Source: a virus. Taken from it: a stretch of 64,000 bases of DNA. The notes beneath the pieces are model-generated. The model searched no databases, had not been told where the DNA came from, and was given only the letters and a program-made list of their open reading frames with translations. The position numbers and the translations under genes are program-made. Of this stretch, positions 3,513 to 47,759 are shown piece by piece (within the stretch, counting starts at the first letter, position 1; every line of letters starts with the position of its first letter). Location: the IMG/VR virus record IMGVR_UViG_3300020442_001467, positions 1 through 64,000 of that record. One strand, 5' to 3'.

Positions 3513-3513
3513 C

Positions 3514-3702
3514 ATGAGATATTATACTGTAGAATATGAACACACTTACTATGGACATACACAGTCATGTATCACTAGAGCAGTCTATTTTCAACTCGAA
3601 TCAGCACAACAAGCGATGATGACGATGATTCACCGAGGACAAGTCGTAACGGGTTTATGTGAACATACACTGGATAGTTCCCGTAGAGGCACTCCCAAGT
3701 AA
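3514..3702 (+). CDS. hypothetical protein
   Basis: ATG at 3514 just after the oxygenase stop. Confidence 0.55.
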   Translation: MRYYTVEYEHTYYGHTQSCITRAVYFQLESAQQAMMTMIHRGQVVTGLCEHTLDSSRRGTPK

Positions 3703-3747
3703 CTGTAAGGGTTATCAACGACGCATTTTGTGTATTTCTTAACAACT

Positions 3748-3768
3748 TGTGGAAAAACCTGTGGAAAA
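3748..3768. promoter_or_regulatory. two tandem cyanobacterial-type DnaA boxes (TGTGGAAAA = TTTTCCACA)
   Basis: TGTGGAAAA at 3748-3756 and 3760-3768, intergenic and beside an AT-rich tract. Confidence 0.55.
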
Positions 3769-3848
3769 CTAAATGTATTAAAAAACATAGGTATTGTGCG
3801 GAGTTGTTGTTGGTTTAGCACCCGACCACTCGAATGTCAACCCCGAGT

Positions 3849-3906
3849 GTGCCAGTTTATCAGGAGACCCCGAGAACTTGACAAATCCGAGTTTTTCGGT
3901 TATTAT
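3849..3906 (+). promoter_or_regulatory. sigma70 promoter with an upstream half-element
   Basis: GTGCCAGTT at 3849-3857; TTGACA 3878-3883, 17-bp spacer, TATTAT 3901-3906. Confidence 0.75.
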
Positions 3907-3971
3907 AGAAATATGAAAAGTTCAAAAAGTCAGTTTTTTGAGTTTTTCAGAAATCTCAAATTTTAAAAAAG

Positions 3972-4202
3972 ATGGAATTTAAAGATTTTGAATCTTCTGC
4001 TATTTCAAGTTTAACAACTAATCAGAATAATCTCACTATTGTGTTTAATAGTTCTCCTAAAGAGTATAATTACACTATAAATGATACAAATTGGGTAGAA
4101 TTACTCACTAATTGTGTCAAAAACGGTGAAAGTGTTGGTAAATTCATCAATAAATCTCTAAAAGAGAAGAATATTGAAGAATTAGTCAATATTTCTAAAT
4201 AA
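3972..4202 (+). CDS. KTSC-domain-like protein
   Basis: SSAISSL...LTIVFNSSPKEYNY...ESVGKFINKSLK matches the KTSC pattern. Confidence 0.65.
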   Translation: MEFKDFESSAISSLTTNQNNLTIVFNSSPKEYNYTINDTNWVELLTNCVKNGESVGKFINKSLKEKNIEELVNISK

Positions 4203-4236
4203 TTACTCAAATTATTGCATAAACACAGTAATAACA

Positions 4237-4395
4237 ATGAAAAGCAATCGTAAATTCAATCCTGATAGTAAACATAAACAAATTCAGATTGAAGATGATT
4301 ATGAAGACTTTGGATATGAAGTCAAGAATGCAAAGAGATTTAAAAGCAGAGCAAAACAATCTGCCAAGTTCAGAGACTACGATGAATTCGATTGA
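4237..4395 (+). CDS. small charged hypothetical protein (52 aa)
   Basis: MKSNRKFNPDSKHKQIQIEDDYEDFGYEVKNAKRFK...; below the ORF-track cutoff. Confidence 0.6.
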   Translation: MKSNRKFNPDSKHKQIQIEDDYEDFGYEVKNAKRFKSRAKQSAKFRDYDEFD

Positions 4396-4409
4396 TATCT
4401 AGAGGACGT

Positions 4410-4467
4410 GTGCCACTAATCGTAGTGTCCACTAACACTTGCATTTCAGATTGATCTGTGCAATAGT
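4410..4467 (+). promoter_or_regulatory. early promoter with palindromic element
   Basis: GTGCCACTaatcgtAGTGTCCAC 4410-4432; TTGCAT 4439-4444; TGcAATAGT 4459-4467. Confidence 0.6.
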
Positions 4468-4491
4468 AACACTGTCGAACAAATCACACAA

Positions 4492-4740
4492 ATGACTGAC
4501 AACATCATCGATCGCGATCAGTTGCAAAATGCACTCATCGAAACCATCATTGATGGTATGGATCACAAGGACATGTGGCAGTTCGTTTATGATAGTTTGA
4601 ACGGCAACTTTGATGATTACTCTGTCGATGAACTTATCAAGGAAACTGAAGAGTATTATCCCCATTTGTTGGAAGATGCCGCAGTGGTACATGTGACCTA
4701 CACTGACACACCGATGGCAGAAGAGGTCTACGGCGGGTAG
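4492..4740 (+). CDS. acidic hypothetical early protein
   Basis: 82 aa with a C/A-rich leader. Confidence 0.75.
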   Translation: MTDNIIDRDQLQNALIETIIDGMDHKDMWQFVYDSLNGNFDDYSVDELIKETEEYYPHLLEDAAVVHVTYTDTPMAEEVYGG

Positions 4741-4795
4741 ACAGTCGAGGTAGTGGCACAGCCTCGGTTGTGCCCTCCCCAATCTCGTGTATTGT
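4740..4795 (+). promoter_or_regulatory. early promoter with palindromic element
   Basis: GACAGTcgaggtAGTGGCACA 4740-4760; TATTGT 4790-4795. Confidence 0.65.
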
Positions 4796-4823
4796 ATAGA
4801 AGTCAACCAAACGACACCATTTC

Positions 4824-5147
4824 ATGCGTAAGATCGAATCCCTGATGAACGCTGCAGTTGCTAACAACAGCAACTGGACAAACAGCAACACCAGTGTTAC
4901 GTACTGCCCTGAATCTGAAGAGTCTAAAGTGTACCTGCACGGCAACCACATTGCTACCGTAGGTGATGACTTCCTCCAAATATTTGATGGAGGTTGGCAG
5001 TCCAACACCACCAAATCTCGTCTGAATGCACTCATCAACCGCTTCTGCAATGGGGTGACCGATGGTGTACACCAGTCTAAATTTGTGTGGTACATTCGTG
5101 ATAACAACGTCGAGCGTGAGTTCGAGAATGGTTACATCTTCGCCTGA
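4824..5147 (+). CDS. conserved cyanophage hypothetical early protein
   Basis: MRKIE...VYLHGNHIA...GGWQSNTTKSRLNAL. Confidence 0.8.
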   Translation: MRKIESLMNAAVANNSNWTNSNTSVTYCPESEESKVYLHGNHIATVGDDFLQIFDGGWQSNTTKSRLNALINRFCNGVTDGVHQSKFVWYIRDNNVEREFENGYIFA

Positions 5148-23063: not shown

Positions 23064-26000
23064 ATGCCACAGAAGACTAATCTTAAAGCCGCCCCATATT
23101 TTGACGACTACGATTCTAGAAAGGATTTTTACAAAGTATTATACAGACCTGGTTACCCTGTACAGGGTAGGGAACTTAATACTACACAATCTATTCTACA
23201 GAATCAGATCGAAAGCTATGGCAAATATGCTTTCAAACAGGGCGACCTAGTTGTCCCTGGAGAGGTCGGTCTTAACAAAAAACTGGACTTTGTAAAACTA
23301 TCGTCTGTTTCTGAAGTTGCTGTTAATGTCGATGGCGAATTAGTATATCAGAAGTACGACATCGATGGTCTAGTTGGTCAGAAGATCAACGGACTATCTT
23401 CTGGTGTTATTGCTATTGTTCAAACTGTTGTAAAAGCAACAGAGAACAATTCCGATACATTATATGTAAAATATTTGACGGCAGGTGACAGTGGAGACGA
23501 AGAAACATTCCGCCAAGGAGAAACTCTCGAAGTTGTTGATGGCATTAACTCGCCTCTCCTTGTTGTTGGTACTGACGGTAGTGTTCTTCCTACTAGCGTT
23601 GCAGTCTTAAATCCTGATACAAATGAGACTACATTTGTAGATAGTGGTGCCATGGGATTTGGTTCCGCTGTACAAGTGGAAGAAGGTGTTTATTTTGTTA
23701 ATGGTTATTTCGTAAGAAATGATTCTGGTCTTATTGTTGTTGATGGTTACAGCGACAATCCTTCAGTAAAAGTTGGATTTAAAATTGACGAAACCCTAGT
23801 TACACCAGAGGATGAACCCTCTCTGTATGACAATGCTTTTGGGTCTTCTAACTATGCAGCACCTGGAGCACATAGATTACAGATCACATTAAATCTGGTC
23901 AAATATCAGTTTGAACAGACTCCAGATAAGAATTTTATTCAACTCCTATCCATCAAGAATGGAGTTATCCAGAAGCAAGTTAAGCAAGCAGCATATAATA
24001 CTCTTGAGAATACTCTTGCAAGAAGAACCTACGATGAATCTGGCGATTACGTAGTAGAAAATTTTGACGTTGATATTAGAGAGTTCTATCAAAGAGATGG
24101 AAACTTTGGTTTGTATCGTGCTGGCGTTGATGGCACAGTAGGACCAAATGGTATTTCTGCAACCGAAGCTGCAGATAAACTAATTGCAACGGTTGGTGCT
24201 GGTAAAGCATATGTTCGTGGTTTTGAAATTGTCAACAAAGAAACCAAGTATCTAGAAATTGATAAAGCAAGAGAAACCCTTGCTAGAGATAATGTAACGA
24301 TCAAGTCTAATGGTCTTGCATCTTTCACGCTAACTAACGTATACAACACCCTCCCTCTAAATGCAGAAGGAGCAGATCTTACTGCATATCCAACTATCTT
24401 CCTGAATGCTGCATATAATGACGGCACCATTGGATTCAATAATCTAGAAGATGTCACTGAATACAGACAGACTATTTCTAGAAGAGGACAAGGGTTCGAC
24501 AAAGATGATGCTATTAAGACTATCTGGGTACAGGCATCTGCCGATCTAGGTCTTATTGACGATACCAGTATTTCCGATTCCCCTGGTGCTGGAAAACTGG
24601 ATTTAAGAACTTTGTACTTTGTTCAGACCAGAACAGACACTGGTGGTGTAGCAACAACAAATACTGTTAAGTGTCTATCATTTGCAAAAGTCACCAGACC
24701 TGAAATTGGTGATGTAAATGCACAATTCCTTCAGTTGACAGTTGCTGGCAGAAAAGATTTACTGGATGACTTCTTCATTGAGTATGACGATAACGTAGCA
24801 ACAAGAAGAAGATTCTTATACACCAGTCTTGCTAATGTTCAGCAAGAAGTTAACAACGTAGGATACATTGTAGATTATTCCGACAGCATTGTTCCTGTCA
24901 TCGGTGTAGCAAAACCAAAAGACTTTACTCTCGTTAAGAGACCAGAGGGATTCAATCAAGATACAGATATCATTATCTCTCGTGGAAAACTTGCTGATGG
25001 TAGACAGACATACAATGGCAACTTCGATCTCTCTTATTTCAATCCAGTATTTTTCACCAGACTTTTCGTAGATTCTCCTGTCACTCCAGCCTTCGCACCT
25101 GGTAAGTACATTTATGGCACTACAAGCGGCGCGTATGGCATTGTAGAGGGTTCTTCTAATGGTTACATGTCATTGGGTAGAAGTCTGTTTGTAAAGACCT
25201 TGTACGGCAATTTCCTGCCTGGTGAGACTATCAACAGCGAAGAAGGTTCAGTCCTACGTATTCCAAAGAACAACACCATCTCCCACTTCGTTGTACAACG
25301 TCAAGGAACTGGTTACGTTGCAGGATCGAAAATCAATGTCAACGGCACTCTATTTGAAAGTGCTGATATCGAAGTTGGTATTGATGGTGGTACTGTTTAC
25401 AAGATTGTAATTAAGAACAGAGATGCAGTGCAAACTGAATTTGCTGCACCTCCTATTTGTGAAGTAACTGGAGCGAATACAATTGCTGTAGGTATTGCTC
25501 CTGTATTGTATAGAGATACAGTCTTGACATACACAGCACAGAATGTCAAATCTTTGTATTCTGAATTTGGATCTAATAATAAGTTCTCTGCTGACATCGA
25601 AACTACTGAAGGTAGTCTTTCTGATACAAGAAACGTAACCGAGTCTACTTTCTCTGGTACGAAAGGATATAAGTTTATTGAGTGCAATGCGTTCGGATCC
25701 GACGCATCTCTTATTCTTGTTCAGGGTGACATCATTCAATTCAACGATGATACTGGAAGAGTTAACAAGTTCACTGTCGAACTAGTAACCACACCGAGAG
25801 GAACCGACAAGTCTAGAATCTACTTGAATGGTGCGCTGCCCGATACTATGACAGCAAAAACTGTCATTAGACAACGTGGAAAGATTAACAATGGTTCTAC
25901 ATCCACATTGATCTTCCCAACAGGAAGTAAAGAAGTTGGCAGTTTGGTTAAGTCAACTGAAGATACCAAACTAACTTATTACATCAGAAGAGACTTTGTA

Positions 26001-29000
26001 ACCACTGGCAGTGATAATGGTGGTAACATTACTTTTGCTGCACAATTAGACTTTGGTACACAGAGATTTACTCAATTTACAGAAAGAGATTTCCTCATCA
26101 CTGTCCTAGACAAAGGTGGTTCTGACCTAGTAGAAACTGGCGATGTTGTTTATGTTTCTTCAGAGTTTGTCAAGATTCTGAATACTACAGATGCTACCTC
26201 TGGTTTGTCTTCTGGTAGTATCACCCTGACTTTCCCTGGTAACTACTTTGGCAACAACGTAACCAACTTCCCCAAACTGAAGTTGACTGCTACCATTGAG
26301 GTCTCAAAAGGTAGACCAAAACTCAAGACAGCAATTAAGAATAAGAGAGTCGTTATCCAATCTCCTGGAGACCAGGTTCTACCTCTCCGTGGTTTGGACT
26401 ATGATAGCGACAGCACCGAAGTATTCTCCTATTCAGATGCATTCCGTATCAGATACATCTATGAAGGATCATCTTCTGCTCCCCCAACTGTTGATGTCAA
26501 TGGCAATCTGGTTGTTGGTACAGATCTTACTAACAGATTTACTTTTGATGATGGACAAAGGGATACATTCTATGACGTATCCAGAATCGTTCTGAAACCT
26601 GGATTTAGTCCACCAACAGGTCAACTAGTTGTTGCTTTCGATTACTTCGAGCATTCTCAAGGAGACTTCTGCACTGTTGACTCTTACATCCATGAAGCAG
26701 GTGTAGTCCTAGATGAGATTCCTGATTTCAACTCTAACGTTCATGGCAACGTAAGTCTGAAGAATGTTATTGACTTCAGACCAAAAGTAGACTCTACTGC
26801 AATTATTCCTGGATATCAGGACACATCACTACTGTCACAATCAGAGTACATCAACTTCATTGGACCTGGTGGTTCTGTTTCTAGCACACCATCTTCTGCT
26901 AGAAATCTTCCTTACACTATCTCATTCAGTGAGTCACAGTTCCTTGACAGAATTGATGGCGTCTTCCTCACCAAGAAGGGCGAATTCGTTGTCAAGAAAG
27001 GTAATGCATCTCTTAACCCAAGCAAACCAGAGATTATCGAAGATGGCATTCCTCTCTACTACATGTTCATCCCTGCGTTTACGAAGTCCAGCAAGGATGT
27101 AAGAATTACTCCTGTTGACAACCGTCGTTACACAATGCGTGACATCGGTAAACTAGAGAAGCGTATTGAACGACTTGAGTATTACACTACGTTGAGCATT
27201 CTTGAGCAGCAAGCTCTCAACATGCAAGTCAAAGATACTCTTGGTATTGATAAGACAAAGAGTGGTTTCTTGGTTGATAACTATGAAACTCATAATGTCG
27301 GTAACGTCAAGTCTATCGACCACCTCTGTTCTATTGATGCACAACAGTCTGTATTGAGACCTCAATCTAAAGAAGACAGTTTTACACTCAAAGAAGTCAA
27401 CAGAAGAGATGACCAGAGAAACATTTCTGGATATACAAACTCTAATGGTGTTATCACACTTCCATACACCAACGTTGTGTATGCACAAAATCAATTTGCA
27501 ACTAGTACAGTAAATCCAAACCCATTCGTTGTTCTACAATATGTTGGCGATGCTGCACTAATGCCAAACATCGACCAATGGTATAACAGTGCAGTTGCAC
27601 CGTTGGTAACCGAAAACAATACTAATCTGTTCTCTGTCTTCTTGGCAAAACAAGATGCACGAGTAGCATTCTCTAGTATCTACAACTCCTTTGTAATTAA
27701 CTGGGTCGGTGTAAACAAAACCTTCTATAACTTGAAGAGTTTTGCAGAGAACAACGGAAGATCTGCCGAGTCTACTGTGAGCAGTGCTGCCATTGGGTCC
27801 TCTTCTAATGTCAGTCCACAAAACAATGAGATTGCGAAGGGAGTCGGATACAAGACAGTTAATGGAACTAACGTATCTAATGCACTGAAGTTCTATGCCA
27901 GATCTGTTCCTGTTAAGTATGTCGTAAGACGTATGAAACCAAAGACGAAACTACACGTCTTTATGGAAGGCAGAGACATCTCTAGATGGATTAACCCAGA
28001 CTCTAGATTTACTGGTATTGCTGGAAACTCTTCTACTACATTTGGTAGTGGTATTACAACAGATCAATATGGCAATGCTAGCGGTATCATTCTAGTACCA
28101 TCGGGATATGCACCTAGAGAGAATTCTTTCTGGACTGGTAACATCGATACCATGCTATATGATGACACCTCCGAAGAAGTATATTTCTCCACAGGTATCA
28201 AGACAATCAGATTTACTTCTAGTTCTACTGATGCTCCTATTACTGATGTAAATGGAGTCAGTTCTTTCGCTGAAGTCAAGTTCTATGCTACTGGTATTCT
28301 GCCAGAGAACCCTGCATCTATTATCTCTACTGCACCAGCATTCTTCAAAGCAAACGAAGGTGTACAGGAGATTGATAGTAACACAGAGAACAAAGAAAGA
28401 CCAAACCCAATGGCACAGACTTTCAAAGTCGAAAGCTTTGAGGGTGGTATGTTTGCAACAGGCGTTGACCTGTTCTTCTCCGAGAAGAGTGCTACTGTTC
28501 CATTAAGAGTTTATCTCTCTAACGTAGAAGCAGACAAACCTGGTAAGTACATCCTTCCTGGATCTATCAGGACTCTCTATCCAGATACTTTCCTGAAGGT
28601 ATATTCTTCTGGAAATATTACTATTCAACAGGGAGAAGATGTCACTGGCAACAGAAGTCTTGCTAAAGGACCTATTGCTAAAGTTCTTGATAGAAACAAT
28701 TTTGAAGTTACCCCTTCCAGTAATGGCGAGATCTCTCTAACAAATGAGCAGACTTATACGTTCATCTTGAATAATCACAACGGAAGAGATTTCCTACAGA
28801 ACGAAGATTTGACTATCGGCACAGTTACTGCATACAACAATGCTAACAATGCTACAGTAGGTCTGAAGATTGCTAAAGACTCTGGTCGTGTATCCAAACT
28901 GAATATTACCAATTTGGGTTCTGGATACGAAAGCGCAACCATCACTATTGAAAGTCCACAACTACCTGGCGGAAGCAACGCTACTGGATCTGTTAAAGTA

Positions 29001-31184
29001 TCTAGTGGTCAACTGTTCCTTGCCGATGTAAGTCTTGCTGGTAGAGGATATACCGAAGCACCATCTGTTGTTATCAGAGGAACTGGTGCTGGTAATAATG
29101 GCGCTGTTATCGAATCCGAGATTGAAATCGACGAACCCGCTGTAAGAATGGGTGTCGCAGTCGATCCTGAAGGTGGCATTAAATCCACCACGCCTACACG
29201 TTTCAACTTCGAGTATCCTGTTTATCTACAAAATGATACCGAGTATGCACTCAATATTGAGTGTGATGCTGTTGAATACAAACTATGGTCTTCCAAGTTG
29301 GGAGAAGAAGATATTTCTTCTGGTCTGGTTGTCAATGCACAACCTCTCCTTGGATCTCTATTCAAGTCTCAAAACACTGCTAACTGGGAAGAAGATCTAT
29401 TTGAGGATATCAAGTTCAATCTATACAGAGCAGAATTCGATACTTCTAGACCTGGTGAACTGGTTATCAAGAACGAGGATCTGGGATACGAAAAACTAAA
29501 ATCTGATCCTTTCGAGACTTATGCTCTTGCCAACAGCACAGCAACTTCTCCTCTGTTCAAAAACAACAGCAACATCATTAAGGTATATCACAGAGATCAT
29601 GGTTTCGAGACCACTGGAGATTCTAAAGTATTCTTCAGAGGACTGCCTGATTTCGCTGGATATGATGCCATCGAACTAGAGTCCACCCTATTCCAAGTTT
29701 CTAATGCAGGCATTGACTCTTACAATATCGTTGGACCATCTAGAGCATCTGATACTGGATTCTTCGGTCAAGATGCAGTTCTAGCATCTTACAATAGAAA
29801 GTACGAAAAACTCTACGCACAAATTCCTTACTTGCAAGTCAGTGGAACTTCTATTGACAGCATGGTAAAAACCACCAATGTTGTTCCTGTTGATTCCAAC
29901 ACTACCAACTACACTTCATATTCTATGACAGATTATGAGACAACTTTCTTGAATGAGGAACAATACTTCCTGAATCAAAAGTTGATTGCATCTCCAATCA
30001 ATGAGAGTCTCAATAATCTAGAGGGATCTTTGATGTACAAATTGACGATGAAGACCGAGAAGTCACATCTGTCTCCTGTTGTTGACTTGAGATCTGCTTC
30101 TGCAAAGACTGTCAGCAATAGAGTAGAAAATTCTGTAGGAACAGAAGGAAGATATGGTAAGAGATATCAAGAAGTTCAATTGTTCCCTGTATACAGATTC
30201 ACTATACAAGGAAACGAGAGCGGCGGTAATCTTGTTCCTATCACCATTGATCAAAATGTCACTGGCGTAACTTCTGGTGCAGAATCTGAAGTCCTGCGTG
30301 TACGTGATAATGACATCTTTGTTAAGATCAAAAACTCTGTAAACTTTGTCTTGGGCGAGACGCTGTACTTCAGTACCCAATCTGCTTCTGGTGGTGATCT
30401 AGATGGAATTACTGTAGTGGTTGCAAACTCTGGAATCTTTAATGAAATTCCAGAGTTTGTAGTTGGTTCCACAGTTACTGCATTCAATCCTTCAGTAAGA
30501 ACCGAAAAGTATGATAATAAAGTCAGTGGTAAAGTAGTCTTCTGGGATTCAAACACCAAGACATTAACTCTTGAAAATGATAAGAGACCTATCAATGATG
30601 ACTACACCAGTGAAATTACACTGGGTAGTGACTTTGCTAGAACTGCAACCACGAGTCTACAAACATCGGATGTCTTCAGAGTCGGTGATCTAATTGACTT
30701 TAAGAATGCCTCTTTCGAGACATCCAAGTTTGCTGAAATTAAGGCAATGTCGTTTGGAAATGGTGTTGACTTTGTTGCAGAAAATGGTTCTGTGAATACA
30801 TCTGGTGTATCCAAGTATGTAACTAAAGAGATCTCCCTAGCAAGTTCTGCTTCTTCACTGAATACTAAATTGACTGTCAATGCAACCGATGTTAATAACA
30901 TCCAAGTTCTGTACAAGATCAAACCAGAAGCATCGCAACAGAAATTTGATGATATCAGTTGGACCTATTTCAATGGAGATGGTTCTTCGGATAATGATGT
31001 CATTGCTACAGCACAGAATAGTATCTCTGGACAGTATGAATCTCAAGATGCATATCAAGAACTATCATTCACCGCGAGTGATATTCCTGACTTCGCATCC
31101 TTTGCTATTAAGATTGTTATGAAATCTGATAATCCTTCTTATGTTCCCAAAATTCAGGACATGAGAACTGTTGCTTCTTTCTAA
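23064..31184 (+). CDS. VrlC-like / DUF4815 large virion structural protein
   Basis: MPQKTNL..APYFDDYD...LYRPG..VQGRELN; LARRTYDESGDY; RRYTMRDIGKLEKRIERLEYYT. Confidence 0.85.
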   Translation: MPQKTNLKAAPYFDDYDSRKDFYKVLYRPGYPVQGRELNTTQSILQNQIESYGKYAFKQGDLVVPGEVGLNKKLDFVKLSSVSEVAVNVDGELVYQKYDIDGLVGQKINGLSSGVIAIVQTVVKATENNSDTLYVKYLTAGDSGDEETFRQGETLEVVDGINSPLLVVGTDGSVLPTSVAVLNPDTNETTFVDSGAMGFGSAVQVEEGVYFVNGYFVRNDSGLIVVDGYSDNPSVKVGFKIDETLVTPEDEPSLYDNAFGSSNYAAPGAHRLQITLNLVKYQFEQTPDKNFIQLLSIKNGVIQKQVKQAAYNTLENTLARRTYDESGDYVVENFDVDIREFYQRDGNFGLYRAGVDGTVGPNGISATEAADKLIATVGAGKAYVRGFEIVNKETKYLEIDKARETLARDNVTIKSNGLASFTLTNVYNTLPLNAEGADLTAYPTIFLNAAYNDGTIGFNNLEDVTEYRQTISRRGQGFDKDDAIKTIWVQASADLGLIDDTSISDSPGAGKLDLRTLYFVQTRTDTGGVATTNTVKCLSFAKVTRPEIGDVNAQFLQLTVAGRKDLLDDFFIEYDDNVATRRRFLYTSLANVQQEVNNVGYIVDYSDSIVPVIGVAKPKDFTLVKRPEGFNQDTDIIISRGKLADGRQTYNGNFDLSYFNPVFFTRLFVDSPVTPAFAPGKYIYGTTSGAYGIVEGSSNGYMSLGRSLFVKTLYGNFLPGETINSEEGSVLRIPKNNTISHFVVQRQGTGYVAGSKINVNGTLFESADIEVGIDGGTVYKIVIKNRDAVQTEFAAPPICEVTGANTIAVGIAPVLYRDTVLTYTAQNVKSLYSEFGSNNKFSADIETTEGSLSDTRNVTESTFSGTKGYKFIECNAFGSDASLILVQGDIIQFNDDTGRVNKFTVELVTTPRGTDKSRIYLNGALPDTMTAKTVIRQRGKINNGSTSTLIFPTGSKEVGSLVKSTEDTKLTYYIRRDFVTTGSDNGGNITFAAQLDFGTQRFTQFTERDFLITVLDKGGSDLVETGDVVYVSSEFVKILNTTDATSGLSSGSITLTFPGNYFGNNVTNFPKLKLTATIEVSKGRPKLKTAIKNKRVVIQSPGDQVLPLRGLDYDSDSTEVFSYSDAFRIRYIYEGSSSAPPTVDVNGNLVVGTDLTNRFTFDDGQRDTFYDVSRIVLKPGFSPPTGQLVVAFDYFEHSQGDFCTVDSYIHEAGVVLDEIPDFNSNVHGNVSLKNVIDFRPKVDSTAIIPGYQDTSLLSQSEYINFIGPGGSVSSTPSSARNLPYTISFSESQFLDRIDGVFLTKKGEFVVKKGNASLNPSKPEIIEDGIPLYYMFIPAFTKSSKDVRITPVDNRRYTMRDIGKLEKRIERLEYYTTLSILEQQALNMQVKDTLGIDKTKSGFLVDNYETHNVGNVKSIDHLCSIDAQQSVLRPQSKEDSFTLKEVNRRDDQRNISGYTNSNGVITLPYTNVVYAQNQFATSTVNPNPFVVLQYVGDAALMPNIDQWYNSAVAPLVTENNTNLFSVFLAKQDARVAFSSIYNSFVINWVGVNKTFYNLKSFAENNGRSAESTVSSAAIGSSSNVSPQNNEIAKGVGYKTVNGTNVSNALKFYARSVPVKYVVRRMKPKTKLHVFMEGRDISRWINPDSRFTGIAGNSSTTFGSGITTDQYGNASGIILVPSGYAPRENSFWTGNIDTMLYDDTSEEVYFSTGIKTIRFTSSSTDAPITDVNGVSSFAEVKFYATGILPENPASIISTAPAFFKANEGVQEIDSNTENKERPNPMAQTFKVESFEGGMFATGVDLFFSEKSATVPLRVYLSNVEADKPGKYILPGSIRTLYPDTFLKVYSSGNITIQQGEDVTGNRSLAKGPIAKVLDRNNFEVTPSSNGEISLTNEQTYTFILNNHNGRDFLQNEDLTIGTVTAYNNANNATVGLKIAKDSGRVSKLNITNLGSGYESATITIESPQLPGGSNATGSVKVSSGQLFLADVSLAGRGYTEAPSVVIRGTGAGNNGAVIESEIEIDEPAVRMGVAVDPEGGIKSTTPTRFNFEYPVYLQNDTEYALNIECDAVEYKLWSSKLGEEDISSGLVVNAQPLLGSLFKSQNTANWEEDLFEDIKFNLYRAEFDTSRPGELVIKNEDLGYEKLKSDPFETYALANSTATSPLFKNNSNIIKVYHRDHGFETTGDSKVFFRGLPDFAGYDAIELESTLFQVSNAGIDSYNIVGPSRASDTGFFGQDAVLASYNRKYEKLYAQIPYLQVSGTSIDSMVKTTNVVPVDSNTTNYTSYSMTDYETTFLNEEQYFLNQKLIASPINESLNNLEGSLMYKLTMKTEKSHLSPVVDLRSASAKTVSNRVENSVGTEGRYGKRYQEVQLFPVYRFTIQGNESGGNLVPITIDQNVTGVTSGAESEVLRVRDNDIFVKIKNSVNFVLGETLYFSTQSASGGDLDGITVVVANSGIFNEIPEFVVGSTVTAFNPSVRTEKYDNKVSGKVVFWDSNTKTLTLENDKRPINDDYTSEITLGSDFARTATTSLQTSDVFRVGDLIDFKNASFETSKFAEIKAMSFGNGVDFVAENGSVNTSGVSKYVTKEISLASSASSLNTKLTVNATDVNNIQVLYKIKPEASQQKFDDISWTYFNGDGSSDNDVIATAQNSISGQYESQDAYQELSFTASDIPDFASFAIKIVMKSDNPSYVPKIQDMRTVASF

Positions 31185-40822: not shown

Positions 40823-40862
40823 ATGGGGGGATTGCTTCGCTGGCGATCCCCCTATTTTTTTA
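40823..40862 (+). terminator. intrinsic terminator
   Basis: GGGGGATTGCT-tcgct-GGCGATCCCCC followed by TATTTTTTT. Confidence 0.85.
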
Positions 40863-40877: not shown

Positions 40878-43800
40878 ATGGTATTCTCCTACGCTGGTAC
40901 TGGAAGAATGCCCCAGTTTGTTGCTGTGAAGGCACTGGGGTTAATTTCGTACAGCTATACATCAGCGATTGAGGAGCAGTTTTTATATCTAGATTTTGGT
41001 GCGCTGGGTCGTGCATACTGGGTAATTGCAGACCACGCAAGTAAAGTAATTGAAGATTACAAAGATGATCAAATAGTTGACTTGGTGGAGTCAGGCGGTC
41101 CCCTGAACCAAGTTGATTATGGATCTATCACAGAAGTAGAAGCATACGCCACGGATGACTGGGGCGAAATCACAGTCACAGCAAATATTCAGGCAATGGG
41201 TCGCACCCATTTCCACTCGCTCACCACCTGGTCTGTTATCAAGACTTGGGTTGGTTCTGGTACAGTATTCGAGTTCGGCGGATCCAGATACAGACTGGAT
41301 GCTCCATACATCGTTTCTGGAACACTGTGGGTTGCTGGCAATGCCAACACTCATTATGTACCTGCGATTGCTGCGGAGGGTCTACTACCCCTCCGTAGTG
41401 ACACTAAAATTGCTTATGCTCCTAACTGGAACGCATTCGGCACCCTGTTCAGCGGTAGCTTTACTGGAGAGGCTGTCGTCAAGGTATCCCCAGAGGATAG
41501 CAAGACATTATTTAACGTCCATGGTGATGCTGGTGTCAGCTTCAGACCCAACTGGGTTGGTTCTGGCGTCCTGTTTAACTTCAGCACCACTACCTTCAAA
41601 CAGACATACGATTATGTCGGTGAAGGAACTCTATTTGGTATCTCTTCTACAGAAGAAAAGGTTGTCTGGGATTACAACAATTCCAGCATCGATTACTTTA
41701 CCTATGAGAACTTCGGATCGGTTGCTGAATCACCAATCGAATCCATCACGATTCAGTCGATTGCTAATGAGACAATCCAGAGTCGTGCAAACGAAAGAAT
41801 TATTGATCTAGTTGTAGCTGGATCTACTTCTGGTGCATTCCTAGACTTTGGCAGTATCCTCACTGATGGTGAGCAGACTCCATCTACTGTCGGACTAGAT
41901 TGGGGTCACATTCTCACAAACCAGACGGATTATCCATTCGGTCTGTTCCCAATCAGTGGTACTGCCAAGCAAGTATTTACTCCCAACTTTGTTGGTTCTG
42001 GTGGACTGTTCGCATTCGTCAATGGTCGCGGCAGAACGAAACCCAGATGGATTGCCTTTGTCAACATCGGAATCTTTGGTGCATCGAAGACAAACTTCAG
42101 TCTTCTACACCAAGGTTCTGGTTCTCTATTCAGCATCAACAATGCAGAAGACAGCAGAGCATACGCTTATAACGGTTCTGGCGCTCTCTATGCCTTCTCT
42201 GGTGCCGCCGAGGCAGTTGGGTTCAACCCACCAGAAGATACCGCTCTACTGCCACTACAGGGCGCTGCGAAGGTGTCCTTCGCCCCCAACTGGGTTGCAG
42301 AAGGTACAGTCAAGGCAGAAGGCGCAGCAGTCGAGAGACAGACAGATCATTACAAAGGATCTGGAACTCTATTCAACTTCGAGACAGGGATCGAGAAAGT
42401 TGCATATCACTATAGCAGCACATCCAATGCTATCTTCCAGTATCGCAACTATGGATCTGTTGCTGATCAACCAATTGAATCTATTACGATTCAATCTATT
42501 GCTAATGAGACCATTGAAAGTCGTAAGGACGACAGAATTATTGACCTGGTAGTAGGTGGCACTACTTCTGGATCTTACCTGGATTATGGTCCAATTCTTA
42601 TCGATGGCGAGGACGCTCCAGAGACTGTTCGCGAAGACTATGGTTCCATCATGGAATCCATCTCTCGCTACGCAATGGGCGATCTGTTGGTACATGGTAC
42701 TGCAGCAGTCAGGAGAGAGTTCTCCTACGTTGGTAAAGGTGATCTGTTTGCCTTCGTCGAGGGTCGTGGTAGAACGAAACCCAGATGGATTGCCAATGTC
42801 AATATTGAGGTCCGTGGCGAGGGTCAAGATGCAGTCGTCAAACGCTTCGTTGGCGATGGTAATCTATTCAACTTCGAGAAAGCAGAAGAAAGGAGAACCT
42901 TCGGTTACGAAGTTCAAGGAACTCTCTTCACGTCTGGCGAAGCTGCTATCGCATTCGAGAGAGCACCATATCCTGCATATGTCCTCTTCGATGTTACTGG
43001 CAACACAAAAGTTGCATTCGTACCCAACTTCAATGGTTCTGGTGTTGCCAGTATCGATGTCGAGCACGTCGAAAGAACTACATTCAGCGAGGTTGGATCT
43101 GGTGTCCTCTTCGACATGGGCAACCTGGTCGAGAGAAGGACATACCACTACAGTCATACTTCCGACACTATATTCACTCCTCTGGATTATGGTTCGGTTG
43201 CTGCCAATCCAATCGACTCCATTACGATCCAGTCTATCGCTAATGATACGATTGAAAGTCGTAAGGACCAGAGAATTATTGATCTTGTAACTGGTGGTTC
43301 TACCTCTGGTTCTTACTTCGATTATGGAACTGTCAGTGACTTCTATCCATCTATCACGGATGACTATGAAGGTATCACAGAGACAGTCACCAGATATGCG
43401 ATGGGTGGTCCACAAATCAGTGGTGCTGCCGATGTCAACTTCAGACCTGTCTACATTGGTTCTGGAGACATTACTATCAATGTCAGCACTATCATCAGAG
43501 TGCTGCCCAGATGGATTGCCTTTGTACCCATCGAGTTTACAGGTGTTGCAACAGACACCTTCACCAAAGCATACAAAGGTTCTGGTATTCTTCCTCTACC
43601 TGTCAGCACGACAGATGCAAGAAGCTTTGCATACGAAGGCAAAGGAGAACTATTTGCTATCAACGGTGGGGAAGAAGCAGTCGCATTCGACTACCCACGT
43701 CAAGATCCTGTATTTACAATTACAGGCGAAGCAAAAGTTGCATTCGTACCCAACTTCAATGGTTCTGGTACAGCAACCCTTTCTGGTACACTCGTCGAGA

Positions 43801-46800
43801 GAGCTGCATTCAATCCTCCTGCGCGTGGAGATCTCTTCAGCTTCAACAATCTCGATGAGCGTAGAACATATCATTACAACTCCAGTTCTATTGATCTACT
43901 CAACAGAATCAGCTATGGTTCTGTTGCTTCGCCAGTCATTGATTCTTGGGTCATTGCTGACCACGCAACCAAGGTCATTCAGGACTACAGAAATGATAAG
44001 ATCGTCGATCTTGTCGAGGGATCTGGTGGCGACTACTTCGATTATGGATTCCTAGAACAAGAAAATGTTGGTGGTCTTCCCAACATCAATACTCCAGATG
44101 CTACCGAAGATTATCAGTTCATCAGAGATCCAGATCTCGATGCTTCCCGATACCCCTTCGGTCATCTATTCAAGTTCTCTGGTCGTTCTGGTGGAGTCAA
44201 GGTTGTCATCAATCTGCGTCACATCGCAGTTCTGGACAAACCAACACTCAAGATTTCTGGCGATGTATTCGTCAAACTTCCCAACAAACACGAGGGAAGT
44301 GGTGTTCTATTCAACACTGGTGGTGCAGCAGAGTCTGCAACATTCAGAGAAGTCAAGGACGGTCTATTCGAGTTCGTTGGATTCGCTGCAACCAGAAGAA
44401 TCCCCAACTTCAATGGCAGCGGTACTATCACATTGGATGGTGCATCCAGCAGTGCAGTTGCATTCGCAGGATTCCAAGAGAACACGATTGTTCTTCGCGG
44501 TATCTCTGGCGTCAAGTACACACCATCCTATGCTGGAACTGGTGTTATCTCCACATTGTCTGGTGCTGCCGAGGCAGTTACAGCAAGTCCAGACGATCTC
44601 ATTGGTCTGTTCGACTTTGTTGGAACGGCAACAGAAAAAGCAACAGCAGCATACACTGGTTCTGGTTCACTGTTTGCATTGTCTGGCGCAGTCGAGGCAG
44701 TTGCTGTTGCAGAAGAGAAGAGAAATCTTATCAAGATCAGCGGCAACGCTGGCGAGAGATTCATCCCGAACTTCAATGGTTCTGGTGCTCTATCTGTACT
44801 ATCTGGCGCAGCAGAATCCAGAACAGCAAGTCCAGACGATCTGTTCACTCTGTTCGACTTTACTGGTCGTGGCACGGTCAGGGCAACTATTGCCGAATCT
44901 GGATTCGCTCTTCTCTCTGTATCTGGCACAACAGAACCAGAGGTCCTCACGTTTGCAGAGCAACCATTTGGTACTGCTACGATCAGTGGCAATGCTGGAG
45001 AGAGATTTGTTCCCAACTGGGTTGGTTCTGGTACTATCGCAACCTTGTCGGGTGCAGCAGAATCTGCAACATTCAATCCTCTGGAGAGACAGCTTCTGTT
45101 CTCCATGGGTGGCGTTGCTACAGAAGCATTTGCTGCAGCACCCACAATCAAGGGAGCAGAGATCAAACTCTCTGGAACCACCGCTCCAGAAATTCGCACA
45201 TTTGCAGAGCAACCATTCGGGGTTATTCCTGTCAGTGGTATTGCAGAAGTCATCAACGTCGATGTATATCTGGCAGAAGGTACTCTGTTCTCTGGTGGAT
45301 TCACTTCAGAATCTGTCACGTTCAAGATTCCTCCAGTCAGAGATGGAGACATTCTCTTCCGTGGTTCTGCAGTCGAGGCAGTTGGATTCAATCCACCAGA
45401 AGAAACTGCACATCTTCTCCTTTCTGGAGAGGTTGTCATTCCTCTTCGCACATTCGCAGAGCAACCAACCGTTCGTGTTGCTATCAGCGGTGTTGCAATC
45501 GAGAAGAACACCGAAGTATATGTTGGAACTGGTGCTATCTTCTCCAACGGATTCACCTCCGAATCTGTCACCAGAAAACTCCCAGAGTTCACAGCACACC
45601 TCAATGTTACTGGTCTCGCAGAAGAGAGAGCAACATTCAGAGAGATCTTCTTTGGTTCCCTCTTCAAGTTCAGAGGATCTGCAGGTCGCGCACTCCTCAC
45701 GTTTGCAGAGCAACCACAGACTCTATCCAAGATTAGTGGTGTTGCTGCTACCACCAGAGCAAGAGACTTCGTTGGCGAAGGCAACATTGCAACTCTTTCT
45801 GGTGCTGCCGAGGCAGTCACTTTCAATCCTCTGGAAAGAGATCTGCTCTTCGATGTTACTGGCATCGCTGCAGAAAGAAGAACAAATGTATTTGTTGGTT
45901 CTGGTCAAATCAAGGTCTACCCAGAAGCAGCAGACATCAGATTCATCCCCAACTGGAATGCAGAAGGTGTCATTCCTGTCAGTGGTACTGCGGTCGAACG
46001 GGTTGCAAGAGACGAGGTTGTTCAGGTCAACATCGGAACATTCTCTGGTGCAGCAGAGTCTGTCACCTTCAATCCACTCGAAAAAGATATGCTGTTCTCT
46101 GTTGGAGGCAGAGCAGCATACAGAACTTCTGTATCGGAAGTCAAACTTGCCAACGCAAGACTCTTCGCAGACGACAACAACGGAGCAACTACCAGGATAC
46201 ACGTTGGTTCTGGAACAGCAACTCTATCTGGTGCTGGTCGTATTGTCATTACTCTCTCCTTCGTTGGAGACATCAGAATTGGTACATTCTCTGGTGCAGC
46301 AGAAGCAGTCACCTTCAATCCACTGGAGAAGGATCTACTATTCTCTGCATCTGGTATTGCATCCCTACGTTCCACTCGCGCTTACTCTGGAACTGGTTCT
46401 CTCTTTGCAGTCAACGGTGCAGCAGAATCCAGAACTGTTGTTCCACCAGCAGATGGTCTGTATGCAATCAATGGCGAAGCGAAGATTGTTATTACAGTCT
46501 CCCACATTGGCGATGGCAATCTCTTCAGTTTCGTCAAGGGTGCAGAAAGCTTTACTTACGATTACGTTGGGGAGCAAGTTCTCTTCAATCTATCTGGCGA
46601 AGCAGTCGAGAGAATTACCAATGCAGAATCTGGATTTGGTTCTATCTTCTCCATCGGTGGTGCTGCAGAAAGAGTTGCCTTTGTACCAAGTCTGCTTGCA
46701 GATGTCAACATTGCTGGTCGTGCAGCAACTCCAAGATCCAGAGTATTCACTGGTTCTGGAGACCTATATGCATTCGACGGTGCAGCAGAGTCCAGAACAA

Positions 46801-47264
46801 TTGCTTACGAGAACGTCGCAATCTTCGACTTCCTCGGTCAGGTCAAACCTGCTATCACCAAGGCATATGTTGGCGAAGCAGAGATCGAAGTTTCTGGAGC
46901 AGCGGCAGTTGCATTCGTCAGAGCACCTTATCCTGGTCAAGCAGACGCTCAACTGTCTGGCACAGCAACAGAGAGCACAACTGTCAACCCACCAGAAGAC
47001 GGCACAGAGATTGCAACCTCTGGCGAGGCAAAGGTTCTTCGCTCCTTCGGTTACGAAGGATCTGGTCAACTCAAAGTACACGGCGATACCATTATTGGTA
47101 TTTCTCTCCGTATCTTTGGTACTGGATCTATCAAGGTCGATGTTCGCACGAGATACTTCCCACTACTCCAGCACACACCAGATGTTCACATCTACATCGC
47201 TGGCAGCGCAGCAACTGTCAAGATCGATGTTGCTCCACCACGTACCTATGGATGGATTATTTAA
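40878..47264 (+). CDS. 2128-aa repetitive structural protein (possible fibre scaffold/ruler)
   Basis: Long ORF of G-S-G-x-L-F / SGAAE repeats with five periodic IIDLV...DYG modules. Confidence 0.8.
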   Translation: MVFSYAGTGRMPQFVAVKALGLISYSYTSAIEEQFLYLDFGALGRAYWVIADHASKVIEDYKDDQIVDLVESGGPLNQVDYGSITEVEAYATDDWGEITVTANIQAMGRTHFHSLTTWSVIKTWVGSGTVFEFGGSRYRLDAPYIVSGTLWVAGNANTHYVPAIAAEGLLPLRSDTKIAYAPNWNAFGTLFSGSFTGEAVVKVSPEDSKTLFNVHGDAGVSFRPNWVGSGVLFNFSTTTFKQTYDYVGEGTLFGISSTEEKVVWDYNNSSIDYFTYENFGSVAESPIESITIQSIANETIQSRANERIIDLVVAGSTSGAFLDFGSILTDGEQTPSTVGLDWGHILTNQTDYPFGLFPISGTAKQVFTPNFVGSGGLFAFVNGRGRTKPRWIAFVNIGIFGASKTNFSLLHQGSGSLFSINNAEDSRAYAYNGSGALYAFSGAAEAVGFNPPEDTALLPLQGAAKVSFAPNWVAEGTVKAEGAAVERQTDHYKGSGTLFNFETGIEKVAYHYSSTSNAIFQYRNYGSVADQPIESITIQSIANETIESRKDDRIIDLVVGGTTSGSYLDYGPILIDGEDAPETVREDYGSIMESISRYAMGDLLVHGTAAVRREFSYVGKGDLFAFVEGRGRTKPRWIANVNIEVRGEGQDAVVKRFVGDGNLFNFEKAEERRTFGYEVQGTLFTSGEAAIAFERAPYPAYVLFDVTGNTKVAFVPNFNGSGVASIDVEHVERTTFSEVGSGVLFDMGNLVERRTYHYSHTSDTIFTPLDYGSVAANPIDSITIQSIANDTIESRKDQRIIDLVTGGSTSGSYFDYGTVSDFYPSITDDYEGITETVTRYAMGGPQISGAADVNFRPVYIGSGDITINVSTIIRVLPRWIAFVPIEFTGVATDTFTKAYKGSGILPLPVSTTDARSFAYEGKGELFAINGGEEAVAFDYPRQDPVFTITGEAKVAFVPNFNGSGTATLSGTLVERAAFNPPARGDLFSFNNLDERRTYHYNSSSIDLLNRISYGSVASPVIDSWVIADHATKVIQDYRNDKIVDLVEGSGGDYFDYGFLEQENVGGLPNINTPDATEDYQFIRDPDLDASRYPFGHLFKFSGRSGGVKVVINLRHIAVLDKPTLKISGDVFVKLPNKHEGSGVLFNTGGAAESATFREVKDGLFEFVGFAATRRIPNFNGSGTITLDGASSSAVAFAGFQENTIVLRGISGVKYTPSYAGTGVISTLSGAAEAVTASPDDLIGLFDFVGTATEKATAAYTGSGSLFALSGAVEAVAVAEEKRNLIKISGNAGERFIPNFNGSGALSVLSGAAESRTASPDDLFTLFDFTGRGTVRATIAESGFALLSVSGTTEPEVLTFAEQPFGTATISGNAGERFVPNWVGSGTIATLSGAAESATFNPLERQLLFSMGGVATEAFAAAPTIKGAEIKLSGTTAPEIRTFAEQPFGVIPVSGIAEVINVDVYLAEGTLFSGGFTSESVTFKIPPVRDGDILFRGSAVEAVGFNPPEETAHLLLSGEVVIPLRTFAEQPTVRVAISGVAIEKNTEVYVGTGAIFSNGFTSESVTRKLPEFTAHLNVTGLAEERATFREIFFGSLFKFRGSAGRALLTFAEQPQTLSKISGVAATTRARDFVGEGNIATLSGAAEAVTFNPLERDLLFDVTGIAAERRTNVFVGSGQIKVYPEAADIRFIPNWNAEGVIPVSGTAVERVARDEVVQVNIGTFSGAAESVTFNPLEKDMLFSVGGRAAYRTSVSEVKLANARLFADDNNGATTRIHVGSGTATLSGAGRIVITLSFVGDIRIGTFSGAAEAVTFNPLEKDLLFSASGIASLRSTRAYSGTGSLFAVNGAAESRTVVPPADGLYAINGEAKIVITVSHIGDGNLFSFVKGAESFTYDYVGEQVLFNLSGEAVERITNAESGFGSIFSIGGAAERVAFVPSLLADVNIAGRAATPRSRVFTGSGDLYAFDGAAESRTIAYENVAIFDFLGQVKPAITKAYVGEAEIEVSGAAAVAFVRAPYPGQADAQLSGTATESTTVNPPEDGTEIATSGEAKVLRSFGYEGSGQLKVHGDTIIGISLRIFGTGSIKVDVRTRYFPLLQHTPDVHIYIAGSAATVKIDVAPPRTYGWII

Positions 47265-47267
47265 TAG

Positions 47268-47275
47268 TATAAATA
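47268..47275 (+). promoter_or_regulatory. T4-type late promoter
   Basis: TATAAATA. Confidence 0.85.
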
Positions 47276-47300
47276 ACATTGGTATCCTAAATTAATTTTA

Positions 47301-47759
47301 ATGACTACCCAGGTACAGTTTAGAAGAGGTACTACTGCTGAACATGCTCACTTCGCGGGAGCGCAGGGTGAGTTGACTATTGATACTGATAAGAATATGG
47401 CGGTTGTCCATGATGGACAAACGAATGGTGGATTTGACGTTTTTCGTGCTCGGTGGGAGTATCTAAATCAAAGTGTCACACTTGGCACCAGTCTTCGTTA
47501 TCTCGTAGACTCGTCTGGAGGACCACTTACGTTAACTCTACCACTATATAATAATCAGTTGGTTCCCAAAGCAGGGGACACCTTGGAGTTCATTGATATT
47601 AATTTTACGTGGGATACAAATAATGTAACAATCGTCGATCCAATTGGAAGAGAATTTCAAAACACTTTTGGAGTTATTTCCAGTCCTTTAGTATTCGACT
47701 TGAAAGGAGCGAGAGTGCAACTAATTTGGGACGGTAACTACTGGAGGGTAATTGTATGA
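47301..47759 (+). CDS. tail protein with Mtd-N-like N-terminus and gp9/gp10-like C-terminal domain
   Basis: QVQFRRGTTAEH..F.GAQGELTIDTD; YLVDSSGGPLTLTLP...GDTLEFID. Confidence 0.75.
   Translation: MTTQVQFRRGTTAEHAHFAGAQGELTIDTDKNMAVVHDGQTNGGFDVFRARWEYLNQSVTLGTSLRYLVDSSGGPLTLTLPLYNNQLVPKAGDTLEFIDINFTWDTNNVTIVDPIGREFQNTFGVISSPLVFDLKGARVQLIWDGNYWRVIV

Follow-up and report, generated by a model that had tools for sequence, protein, structure and literature searches.

Why would a gene rid itself of stop triplets in reading frames that it does not use? The question is raised by a giant repeat-protein gene (2128 amino acids (aa); positions 40878–47264, + strand) in IMG/VR virus record IMGVR_UViG_3300020442_001467. 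We analysed positions 1 to 64,000 of this record (hereafter the window), a 64-kilobase (kb) part of a 73.3-kb viral contig whose closest named relative, with 91% nucleotide identity across the region discussed here, is the Synechococcus phage S-CAM1, a T4-like cyanomyovirus (Kyanoviridae). An earlier note on this DNA had reported that about 3.2 kb of the gene avoids TAA, TAG and TGA in all three sense frames, and our count agrees. On the + strand between 44056 and 47261 (hereafter the zone) the sole stop triplet in any frame is a TAG at 45734, against 87–132 expected, and the first 300 nucleotides (nt) of the same gene hold 15 off-frame stops, close to the number that the note had given. Below, '+1' and '−1' denote the two unused sense frames, the −1 frame starting at codon position 3. 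We describe how the stops are removed, present evidence that selection keeps them out, and weigh what might be reading the unused frames.

Stop triplets are removed by synonymous codon choice

Three null models that preserve the protein all lie far above the single stop observed, which excludes chance. Permutation of synonymous codons inside the region gave expectations of 16.5 (+1) and 70.7 (−1) stops, with a minimum total of 65 in 2000 shuffles; redrawing codons from the usage of 26 other genes gave 38.8 + 93.4 stops (minimum 105 in 1000); and a shuffle that keeps the codon-junction dinucleotides, by whose construction the +1 frame is fixed, gave 56.5 stops in the −1 frame (minimum total 40 in 1000). 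The avoidance works through context-dependent synonymous choice, as had been described: within the zone, T-ending codons occur in 0 of 113 positions before GA, 0 of 70 before AA and 1 of 52 before AG, but in 89 of 119 before GG. Likewise, NTA codons are followed by A or G in 0 of 24 cases, and NTG codons by A in 0 of 23.

The avoided set is specific. Off-frame TGA is found 0 times against 37 expected (z-score (z) −8.0), TAA 0 times against 28 (z −7.7) and TAG once against 22 (z −5.9), so that the three stops are among the four most depleted of the 64 off-frame triplets; the fourth, TTT (z −6.4), ranks between TAA and TAG. TGG, TGC, TGT and TAT are enriched off-frame, and the one-letter stop neighbours TGG, CAA, CAG, CGA, AGA and TCA are also up. 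The effect is equally specific to the strand, since the reverse complements TCA, CTA and TTA are plentiful off-frame (84, 17 and 22 copies). On the + strand of the 73-kb contig, 7 of the 8 stop-free runs of at least 200 nt lie inside the giant gene; the − strand of the contig has none. A 445-aa antisense open reading frame (ORF) opposite the zone (44528–45865, − strand) is taken as a chance shadow, because stop density on the − strand is otherwise normal. Downstream, the three sense frames close within about 35 nt of one another, at 47262, 47270 and 47293. The factual statements of the earlier note were all borne out.

The depletion belongs to this gene. When off-frame stops were counted gene by gene against synonymous shuffles in contig ORFs of at least 100 aa, a check that the note had proposed, the giant gene stood out at z = −14.5, with the other real ORFs at −5.5 to +1.5; the contig has a mild general off-frame stop deficit (control z mean −1.05). 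In S-CAM1 (197,000 of 198,013 bases, both strands), 5 of the 6 stop-free runs of at least 220 nt fall in the ortholog, which in a comparison with 16 other long genes (z −7.0 to +1.5) reached −13.7. All other genes of the contig and of S-CAM1 carry TAA, TAG and TGA at 40–60 per kb on the same strand.

Selection against off-frame stops continues across the family

The zone and its S-CAM1 counterpart differ at 295 nucleotides, and 13% of the possible single changes would make an off-frame stop, so that about 39 private stops are expected. Only 2 were seen, both within the last 50 nt. By frame, the counts were 0 against 18.3 expected in +1 (P = 1e-8) and 2 against 20.6 in −1 (P = 3e-7). In control genes, creation alone predicts 11, 31.5, 3.4 and 32.7 private stops, and 20, 31, 4 and 48 were counted; these neighbours turn stops over normally, and the counting method is therefore not the source of the deficit. 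In a distant clade of virome loci (L060, L065 and L068), a 1-kb block has stayed stop-free despite 116 and 126 differences.

The depletion recurs in orthologs, with z of −15.3 in S-CAM1, −16.1 in S-CAM3 (36% aa identity), −10.1 in S-SSM7 and −5.6 in S-SCSM2R, against −2.1 to +1.7 in the genes adjoining them. The earlier note had asked that orthologs be compared in this way and had named normal stop density in them, or similarly few stops in shuffled controls, as contrary outcomes; depletion persisted despite the divergence, and none of the contrary outcomes that sequence can test emerged. Among 37 virome loci, many of which are near-duplicates, 34 have z of −7 or lower, two lie at −6.3 and −6.9, and one (L041) at −2.2. 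The trait is present in orthologs down to about 25–36% aa identity. In L041 (7590–11333; 25% identity), a distant member of the family that offers a natural contrast, the repeat type of the protein is kept, stop density is normal (z −2.2) and the longest stop-free run is 102 nt.

Such a zone might be a neutral by-product of repeat ancestry and gene conversion, of amino-acid composition, or of codon-pair or dinucleotide bias, and it is indeed made of diverged repeats of about 41 aa in a contig with a mild overall stop deficit. All three nulls nevertheless miss the observation widely. New substitutions avoid stops (2 against about 39) where neighbour genes behave neutrally, gene conversion would be blind to the distinction between stop-creating and other changes, and stop density is normal where this repeat type occurs elsewhere in distant relatives and in L041. 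A repeat-intrinsic effect was rejected on the same ground, as a repeat hidden Markov model (HMM) found observed/expected ratios of 0.75–1.0 outside the block in distant relatives. Out-of-phase repeats of the kind described by Ohno were also rejected: self-BLAST among the three frames gave no match, and the DNA repeat spacings are multiples of 3, except for two spacings, due to chance, within a single weak family. Within the reach of sequence analysis, the neutral account is refuted, and we leave it almost no probability. What the comparisons with relatives show instead is purifying selection, still at work, that keeps TAA, TAG and TGA out of both unused sense frames in the distal half of the giant gene; on the evidence of the orthologs, natural selection maintains the trait across the whole gene family.

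The constraint is organized in blocks

In 23 of 24 family genes, all except L041, the +1 frame is open for 1.0–3.8 kb, and its open stretch ends no more than 71 nt from the stop codon; the −1 frame is open in discrete blocks of 0.4–2.4 kb, which in the window run over 44000–45733 and 45737–47261. In Block A (44056–45733, + strand), both unused frames are open; its stop-free run is 1681 nt, and the −1 frame is open over gene nt 3122–4856. In Block B (45737–47261, + strand), both are open to the stop codon, with a stop-free run of 1528 nt. The lone exceptional TAG (45734–45736, + strand; −1 frame, formed by ATT AGT, Ile-Ser) stands at the joint of the two. Because it occupies the same alignment column in 10 of 13 aligned genes and S-CAM3 has a cluster of −1 stops at this place, 45734 marks a joint between two blocks; the local DNA is unusually conserved, and for that reason we claim no function for the TAG.

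Outside the blocks, −1 stop density is about normal (observed/expected 0.8–1.1). Among ten close-clade genes, the window's included, 77 of the 79 stops inside the zone are in the −1 frame, and relatives tolerate stops only in roughly the last 40–110 nt of Block B. The tolerated exceptions, counted by hand as distinct alignment columns (about 20 TGA, 9 TAG and 6 TAA), lean towards the leakiest stop, a tendency that is not significant in a rough chi-square test. The alignments thus show an ORF-like constraint, all-or-none within blocks and sharp at their edges, with exceptions at the block joint and near the gene end.

Each module of the N-terminal half has its off-frame stops concentrated in the part that is not repeat (motif RIIDLV...DYG). 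Coupling of the +1 stop to the start codon of the next gene was considered and rejected, because its distance from the frame-0 stop varies from −71 to +43 nt. Two further codon habits were noted in the family. In-frame ATG, GTG and TTG are scarce throughout (0.1–1.6 per 100 codons against 2.5 in other genes), with CTG usage normal in the window's clade, and T-ending codons before TT are rare gene-wide (1–13% against 24%). Neither habit was retained as a cause of the blocks, both being family-wide properties of the whole gene that are not block-specific.

The unused frames do not encode conserved proteins

The open +1 frame gives rise to a 1076-aa shadow ORF (44065–47295, + strand), which the earlier note had listed and which is present. 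True overlapping genes, in which one or both unused frames would code for needed proteins, therefore had to be weighed: conservation of an ORF over diverged relatives, as found here, is the classic sign of overlap, and the L/S/Q/V-rich +1 product would not be absurd as a protein. The other marks of dual coding, a lowered synonymous rate in the host frame and a conserved alternative-frame protein with its start, are missing in these comparisons. Against S-CAM1, the synonymous rate (dS) in the zone is 0.199, within the 0.187–0.261 of four neighbour genes and next to 0.229 in the N-terminal half; it is normal even though synonymous changes at third positions alter the second codon letter, and with it the residue, of the +1 frame and the first codon letter of the −1 frame. 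With a ratio of nonsynonymous to synonymous rates (dN/dS) of 0.25 for the giant gene against S-CAM1, and with BLAST scores against S-CAM3 of 483 bits in frame 0 but 69 bits in +1 and 47 bits in the other unused frame, 5–10 times lower, frame 0 is the conserved frame. Compared with S-CAM1, identity reaches 88.7% in frame 0 and 81.5% in +1. The first +1 ATG, at 44065, is absent already from S-CAM1, where it reads ATA, and start positions vary among relatives. Furthermore, both unused frames are open simultaneously, and their compositions are junk-like, the −1 product being rich in R/S/C/W with 10% Cys and 8% Trp. These comparisons show that the unused frames, the shadow ORF included, do not encode conserved proteins, and they make overlapping genes a very improbable explanation.

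Frameshifting and evolvability

The earlier note had proposed that ribosomes frequently leave frame 0, by slipping, sliding or T4 gene 60-like bypassing between repeats, and, among possible functions, had named a product of constant length (a ruler) and the skipping of repeats to give variable fibres. Three frames that stay open for 3.2 kb and all close within 35 nt past the gene speak for this, and exact 15-mers that recur four times at 249–252 nt provide matched take-off and landing codons. Slippery sites are nevertheless missing: control genes have 15 in-frame X XXY YYZ heptamers in 21,402 nt, while the 6384-nt giant gene has none, and it also avoids runs of T, with TTTT found 0 times in the zone against 14.3 expected. 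As for bypassing, frame 0 is continuous and conserved over the whole giant gene, with no coding gap or in-frame stop of the gene 60 type. Repeat spacings, those of the 15-mers included, are multiples of 3, so that hops between repeats would stay in frame and need no open alternative frames. The polypeptides that the alternative frames would yield (R/S/C/W- or L/S/Q/V-rich) are unlike the fibre repeat. The −1 block of distant relatives ends about 700 nt before the gene end, which means that product length would not be kept in that frame; we found no evidence for a ruler, and none for repeat skipping. Frequent slipping or bypassing is in our judgement distinctly unlikely, and this part of the note found no support in the sequence.

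A second-order explanation would place the benefit in the future of the gene. If the zone faces the receptor and evolves fast in an arms race, stops might be purged so that compensated insertions and deletions (indels) give full-length variants and not truncated proteins. In protein terms the zone does change more quickly than the N-terminal half (dN 0.066 and 0.039, dN/dS 0.33 and 0.17, respectively), the block of L065 and L068 is among the more diverged parts of their genes (11–16%), and in marine phages, whose populations are huge, weak selection is effective. The traces that such exchange should leave were not found. Frame-switched homology among orthologs was rejected, as the +1 and −1 translations had no real match to frame 0 of 30 relatives; a single frame-switched match, in the truncated locus L017, is an artefact of the shadow frame having been picked there. 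Compensated frameshifts were rejected as well, because nearly all indels in global alignments are multiples of 3. Per 1000 mismatches, short paired gaps that are not multiples of 3 number 34 in the zone, as compared with 36 for the N-terminal half and with 28 and 33 for flanking genes; the similar rates inside and outside the zone mark the gaps in BLAST-style alignments as alignment artefacts. RNA-library contigs of relatives cover the gene in part, and two paired 1-nt gaps in them look like alignment effects; these are assembled contigs, in which frame use, rare variants and expression level are not visible.

Tracts of the contingency-locus type, as used for phase variation, never exceed expectation in the zone (TTTT 0, GGGG 2, CCCC 3, AAAAA 2). 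As regards a diversity-generating retroelement, the 73-kb contig gave no match to reverse transcriptase (PF00078); it is a fragment, 37% complete, in which a template/variable repeat pair was not searched for, so that absence of the enzyme from the phage does not follow. A single frameshift would still cost the conserved C-terminus, and a complete purge needs a per-site cost that second-order selection seldom supplies. Evolvability is thus an improbable cause of the zone.

A reader at the nucleic-acid level

Formally, the pattern consists of three words that are absent from one strand irrespective of frame, and the role of translation is itself read from sequence alone. A strand-specific nuclease, primase or RNA-binding factor that reads TAA, TAG and TGA, or TTA, CTA and TCA on the template, could in principle impose it. 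The exact match to the stop codons, sparing TGG, TAT, TAC, TGT and TGC, would then be a coincidence; the zone ends at a stop codon, a translational landmark, and the other genes of the contig and of S-CAM1 carry the same triplets on the same strand at the density given above. A restriction-type explanation fails because the complements are common. RNA folding of the zone is not special (z −4.1 and −2.2, against −3.9 in a control gene), and a search of Rfam gave no family at threshold, only one chance small nucleolar RNA match (E = 0.33). Depletion of A/U runs and of Shine–Dalgarno-like motifs was discarded as a lead, being genome-wide and not gene-specific, with an A/U-run deficit no stronger than that of another fibre gene. 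We consider a reader of this kind quite improbable.

Translation termination as the proposed selected step

The avoided set comprises exactly the three stops, on the sense strand of a coding region, in a zone that ends at the stop codon, and the simplest reader of such a set is the ribosome together with its release factors. Within blocks the constraint is all-or-none, while the products vary freely, which points to ribosome transit, or the absence of termination, as the selected trait. That selection acts through translation termination is thus the most economical reading. Of the corresponding claim in the earlier note, selection itself stood; its route through termination is this most economical inference and not a direct observation.

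On the mechanism that we favour, to which we give a probability of about 40%, off-frame ribosomes must not terminate within a long message made by reading through a terminator, and their transit shields the distal RNA. The agent that reads the triplets would be the ribosome with its release factors, and termination by off-frame ribosomes inside the gene would be selected against. Such ribosomes would probably stem either from rare, spontaneous losses of frame or from translation begun internally, at the many off-frame NTG codons of the 6.4-kb message. What may set the message apart is its place directly behind a conserved, putative intrinsic terminator; it lacks a promoter of its own and would probably be made only by read-through. 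As for the benefit, we guess that what counts would be the act of translating and not its product, with ribosomes that stay on the distal 3 kb keeping the RNA covered to the natural gene end, as a sense-strand counterpart of the ribosome shielding proposed for ambigrammatic narnaviruses. In a bolder version, wrong-frame ribosomes would be a working part of the message: a read-through messenger RNA (mRNA), sparsely loaded in frame 0, would be shielded by off-frame ribosomes running to the end, and any off-frame stop would be selected against for that reason. We think this version unlikely.

The transcript context bears on the read-through element. A hairpin resembling an intrinsic terminator, with 14 pairs and a T run (40823–40861, + strand), lies 17 nt upstream of the giant-gene ATG and is the best terminator-like site in the 9.5 kb scanned; comparable hairpins, read by eye, precede the orthologs in four relatives (S-CAM3, S-SSM7, L042 and L065). 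The box TATAAATA, which we take to be the T4-type late-promoter consensus, has 8 matches in the window against 2.2 expected, all on the + strand and just upstream of genes (21119, 21125, 39314, 39329, 47268, 51446, 55020 and 61888). Those at 39314 and 39329 precede the upstream gene, and on the window map none falls between the hairpin and the giant-gene ATG. Behind a terminator-like hairpin and without a promoter box of its own, the giant gene is probably transcribed only by read-through of the upstream terminator, and the arrangement suggests that the hairpin sets a fixed high:low expression ratio of the 475-aa gene, its upstream neighbour, and the giant gene. Directly after the giant gene, a TATAAATA box (47268–47275, + strand) serves the next gene (47301), and a box follows the gene in 17 of the 18 orthologs compared, the exception being S-SCSM2R (CTAAATA). 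Elsewhere in the window, TAAATA is absent from the 8.1-kb gene at 23064–31181, where 5.1 are expected.

Several observations weigh against the shielding mechanism. The presence of ribosomes in the unused frames is something that we infer solely from the identity of the avoided triplets. Slippery sequences are avoided (0 heptamers; T before TT in 2 of 78), so that entry by slipping should be rare; off-frame ATG is neither enriched nor depleted (29 seen, 24.5 expected), and the alternative frame has no conserved start codon. In one clade (L060, L065 and L068), ribosomes in the −1 frame would not reach the gene end, since the open block of that frame closes about 700 nt short of the stop codon. 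The stop-poor beta-repeat spacers of the N-terminal half are unprotected (13 private stops against 16.6 expected), and the trait is missing from other giant genes of S-CAM1, which encode fibre proteins of 3693, 3032 and 2706 aa. Folding and A/U-run depletion are both unexceptional, so that nothing independent points to RNA stability. Finally, long junk polypeptides ought to carry a cost, contrary to the expectation of the ambush hypothesis, taken up below.

The gene and its surroundings

The 2128-aa protein matches the profile of PHROG 11522, a family of unassigned function, over its entire length (E = 0, 4002.6 bits; residues 1–2128 on profile positions 1–2130 of 2130), and its gene belongs to a tail-fibre module. 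A Pfam search of the protein returned 0 families, and a protein atlas search gave viral clusters without names, all with scores below 0.9. A search that scored 8000 candidates yielded at least 553 relatives at E ≤ 1e-5, almost all of them from marine metagenomes and without names. Directly downstream lies the gene for a 152-aa tail protein (47301–47759) with an N-terminal Mtd_N domain (E = 2.5e-14), the N-terminal domain type of the major tropism determinant, and a 1090-aa tail-fibre protein with CBM_5_12 repeats is also encoded downstream. The window contains no transfer RNA genes.

The N-terminal half (40878–44055, + strand) consists of five modules of about 245 aa each; the remainder is a long array whose diverged units measure about 41 aa and have the HMM consensus YVGSGSLFTFGGAAESVTFNYPESTALFTISGT. 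AlphaFold2 runs on residues 1275–1774 and on the last 320 residues, both within 44700–47261 (26-row alignment), gave predicted local distance difference test (pLDDT) values of 27.6 and 29.4; with both below 30, no fold can be named for this well-conserved protein. Within the array, the 15-mer TTYGCAGAGCAACCA, encoding Phe-Ala-Glu-Gln-Pro, occurs in four exact copies (44952–45716, + strand; 0 expected) that start at 44952, 45201, 45453 and 45702, a spacing of 249–252 nt. Relatives carry 1 to 4 copies, kept letter-perfect even in the distant S-CAM3 and L037, and the copies may be recombination boxes for exchange or copy-number change of 83-aa units.

Implications and relation to known systems

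Coding sequences are generally thought to ignore or slightly favour off-frame stops; here they are completely removed over kilobases, and a gene family abundant in marine cyanophages pays for this with constrained codon choice. The zone gives direct evidence of something that reads an mRNA in its unused frames, with consequences for fitness. If that reader is the ribosome, the family offers a natural and genetically tractable system, as the phages S-CAM1, S-CAM3 and S-SSM7 and their Synechococcus hosts are culturable, and it could serve to measure the frequency of out-of-frame ribosomes and the cost of terminating within a long message; polysome shielding, if true, would be a selected trait of a bacterial-virus mRNA. 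In practical terms, the kilobase shadow ORFs that the trait produces mislead gene callers, and gene-specific stop purging without dual coding is a new signature for which genomes can be scanned.

The earlier note knew of no described system of this kind, and that view stands: our searches of the searchable literature on off-frame stop depletion, phage cases and cyanophage fibre genes yielded nothing relevant, and no described mechanism accounts for the stop-purged zone. Several known systems resemble it in part. Internally repetitious coding sequences, as described by Ohno, are open in all frames because their repeat unit is not a multiple of three, a passive legacy. The giant gene is likewise built of repeats and has long open alternative frames; unlike in Ohno's case, selection actively keeps the frames open, and the repeats are spaced by multiples of three. 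Phage recoding is known from −1 frameshifting in tail chaperone genes and from bypassing in T4 gene 60, with matched codons around a 50-nt gap that contains a stop. It shares with the present case the setting of a phage structural gene and the idea of ribosomes leaving frame 0, but programmed recoding uses one defined site, whereas here there is no such site and the signal is the absence of stops over 3.2 kb. Overlapping (overprinted) genes of viruses and phages, such as Rz/Rz1, have a lowered synonymous rate in the host frame, a defined start and a conserved protein of their own; a conserved open alternative frame within a gene is common to them and to our case, and none of these three hallmarks holds here.

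The ambush hypothesis (Seligmann and Pollock 2004, summarised in PMC8410138) holds, according to that summary, that hidden off-frame stops are enriched so that shifted ribosomes abort early. It concerns the same elements as our case, namely off-frame stops, synonymous choice and ribosomal frame loss, with the opposite sign, since it expects enrichment and we find near-total depletion. In the literature searched, off-frame stops are treated as neutral or weakly enriched, and the debate, according to the same article, is about a weak genome-wide enrichment, not a gene-specific purge (PMC8410138).

The closest analogue that we can name is found in the ambigrammatic narnaviruses, in which a stop-free reverse ORF runs across the gene for the RNA-dependent RNA polymerase (Retallack et al. 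2021, PMC8316113; Dudas et al. 2021, PMC8155312). As those reports present it, the narnaviruses are RNA viruses of eukaryotes whose extra frame occupies the complementary strand over a whole genome segment, and the need for it to be open was shown by experiment. In the giant gene, the constraint is known from the DNA sequence, and purifying selection gives such a need indirect support only; both extra frames lie on the sense strand of one gene of a double-stranded DNA phage, extend over part of that gene and share the mRNA of the translated frame, and the reverse-complement strand has a normal stop density. The likeness lies in the manner of the constraint, for the stops of the giant gene, too, are removed synonymously without protein-level constraint. 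Both systems keep a kilobase-long extra frame free of stops through synonymous choice under selection, and in both this frame seems to be without a functional protein, with translation, or cover by ribosomes, as the proposed benefit.

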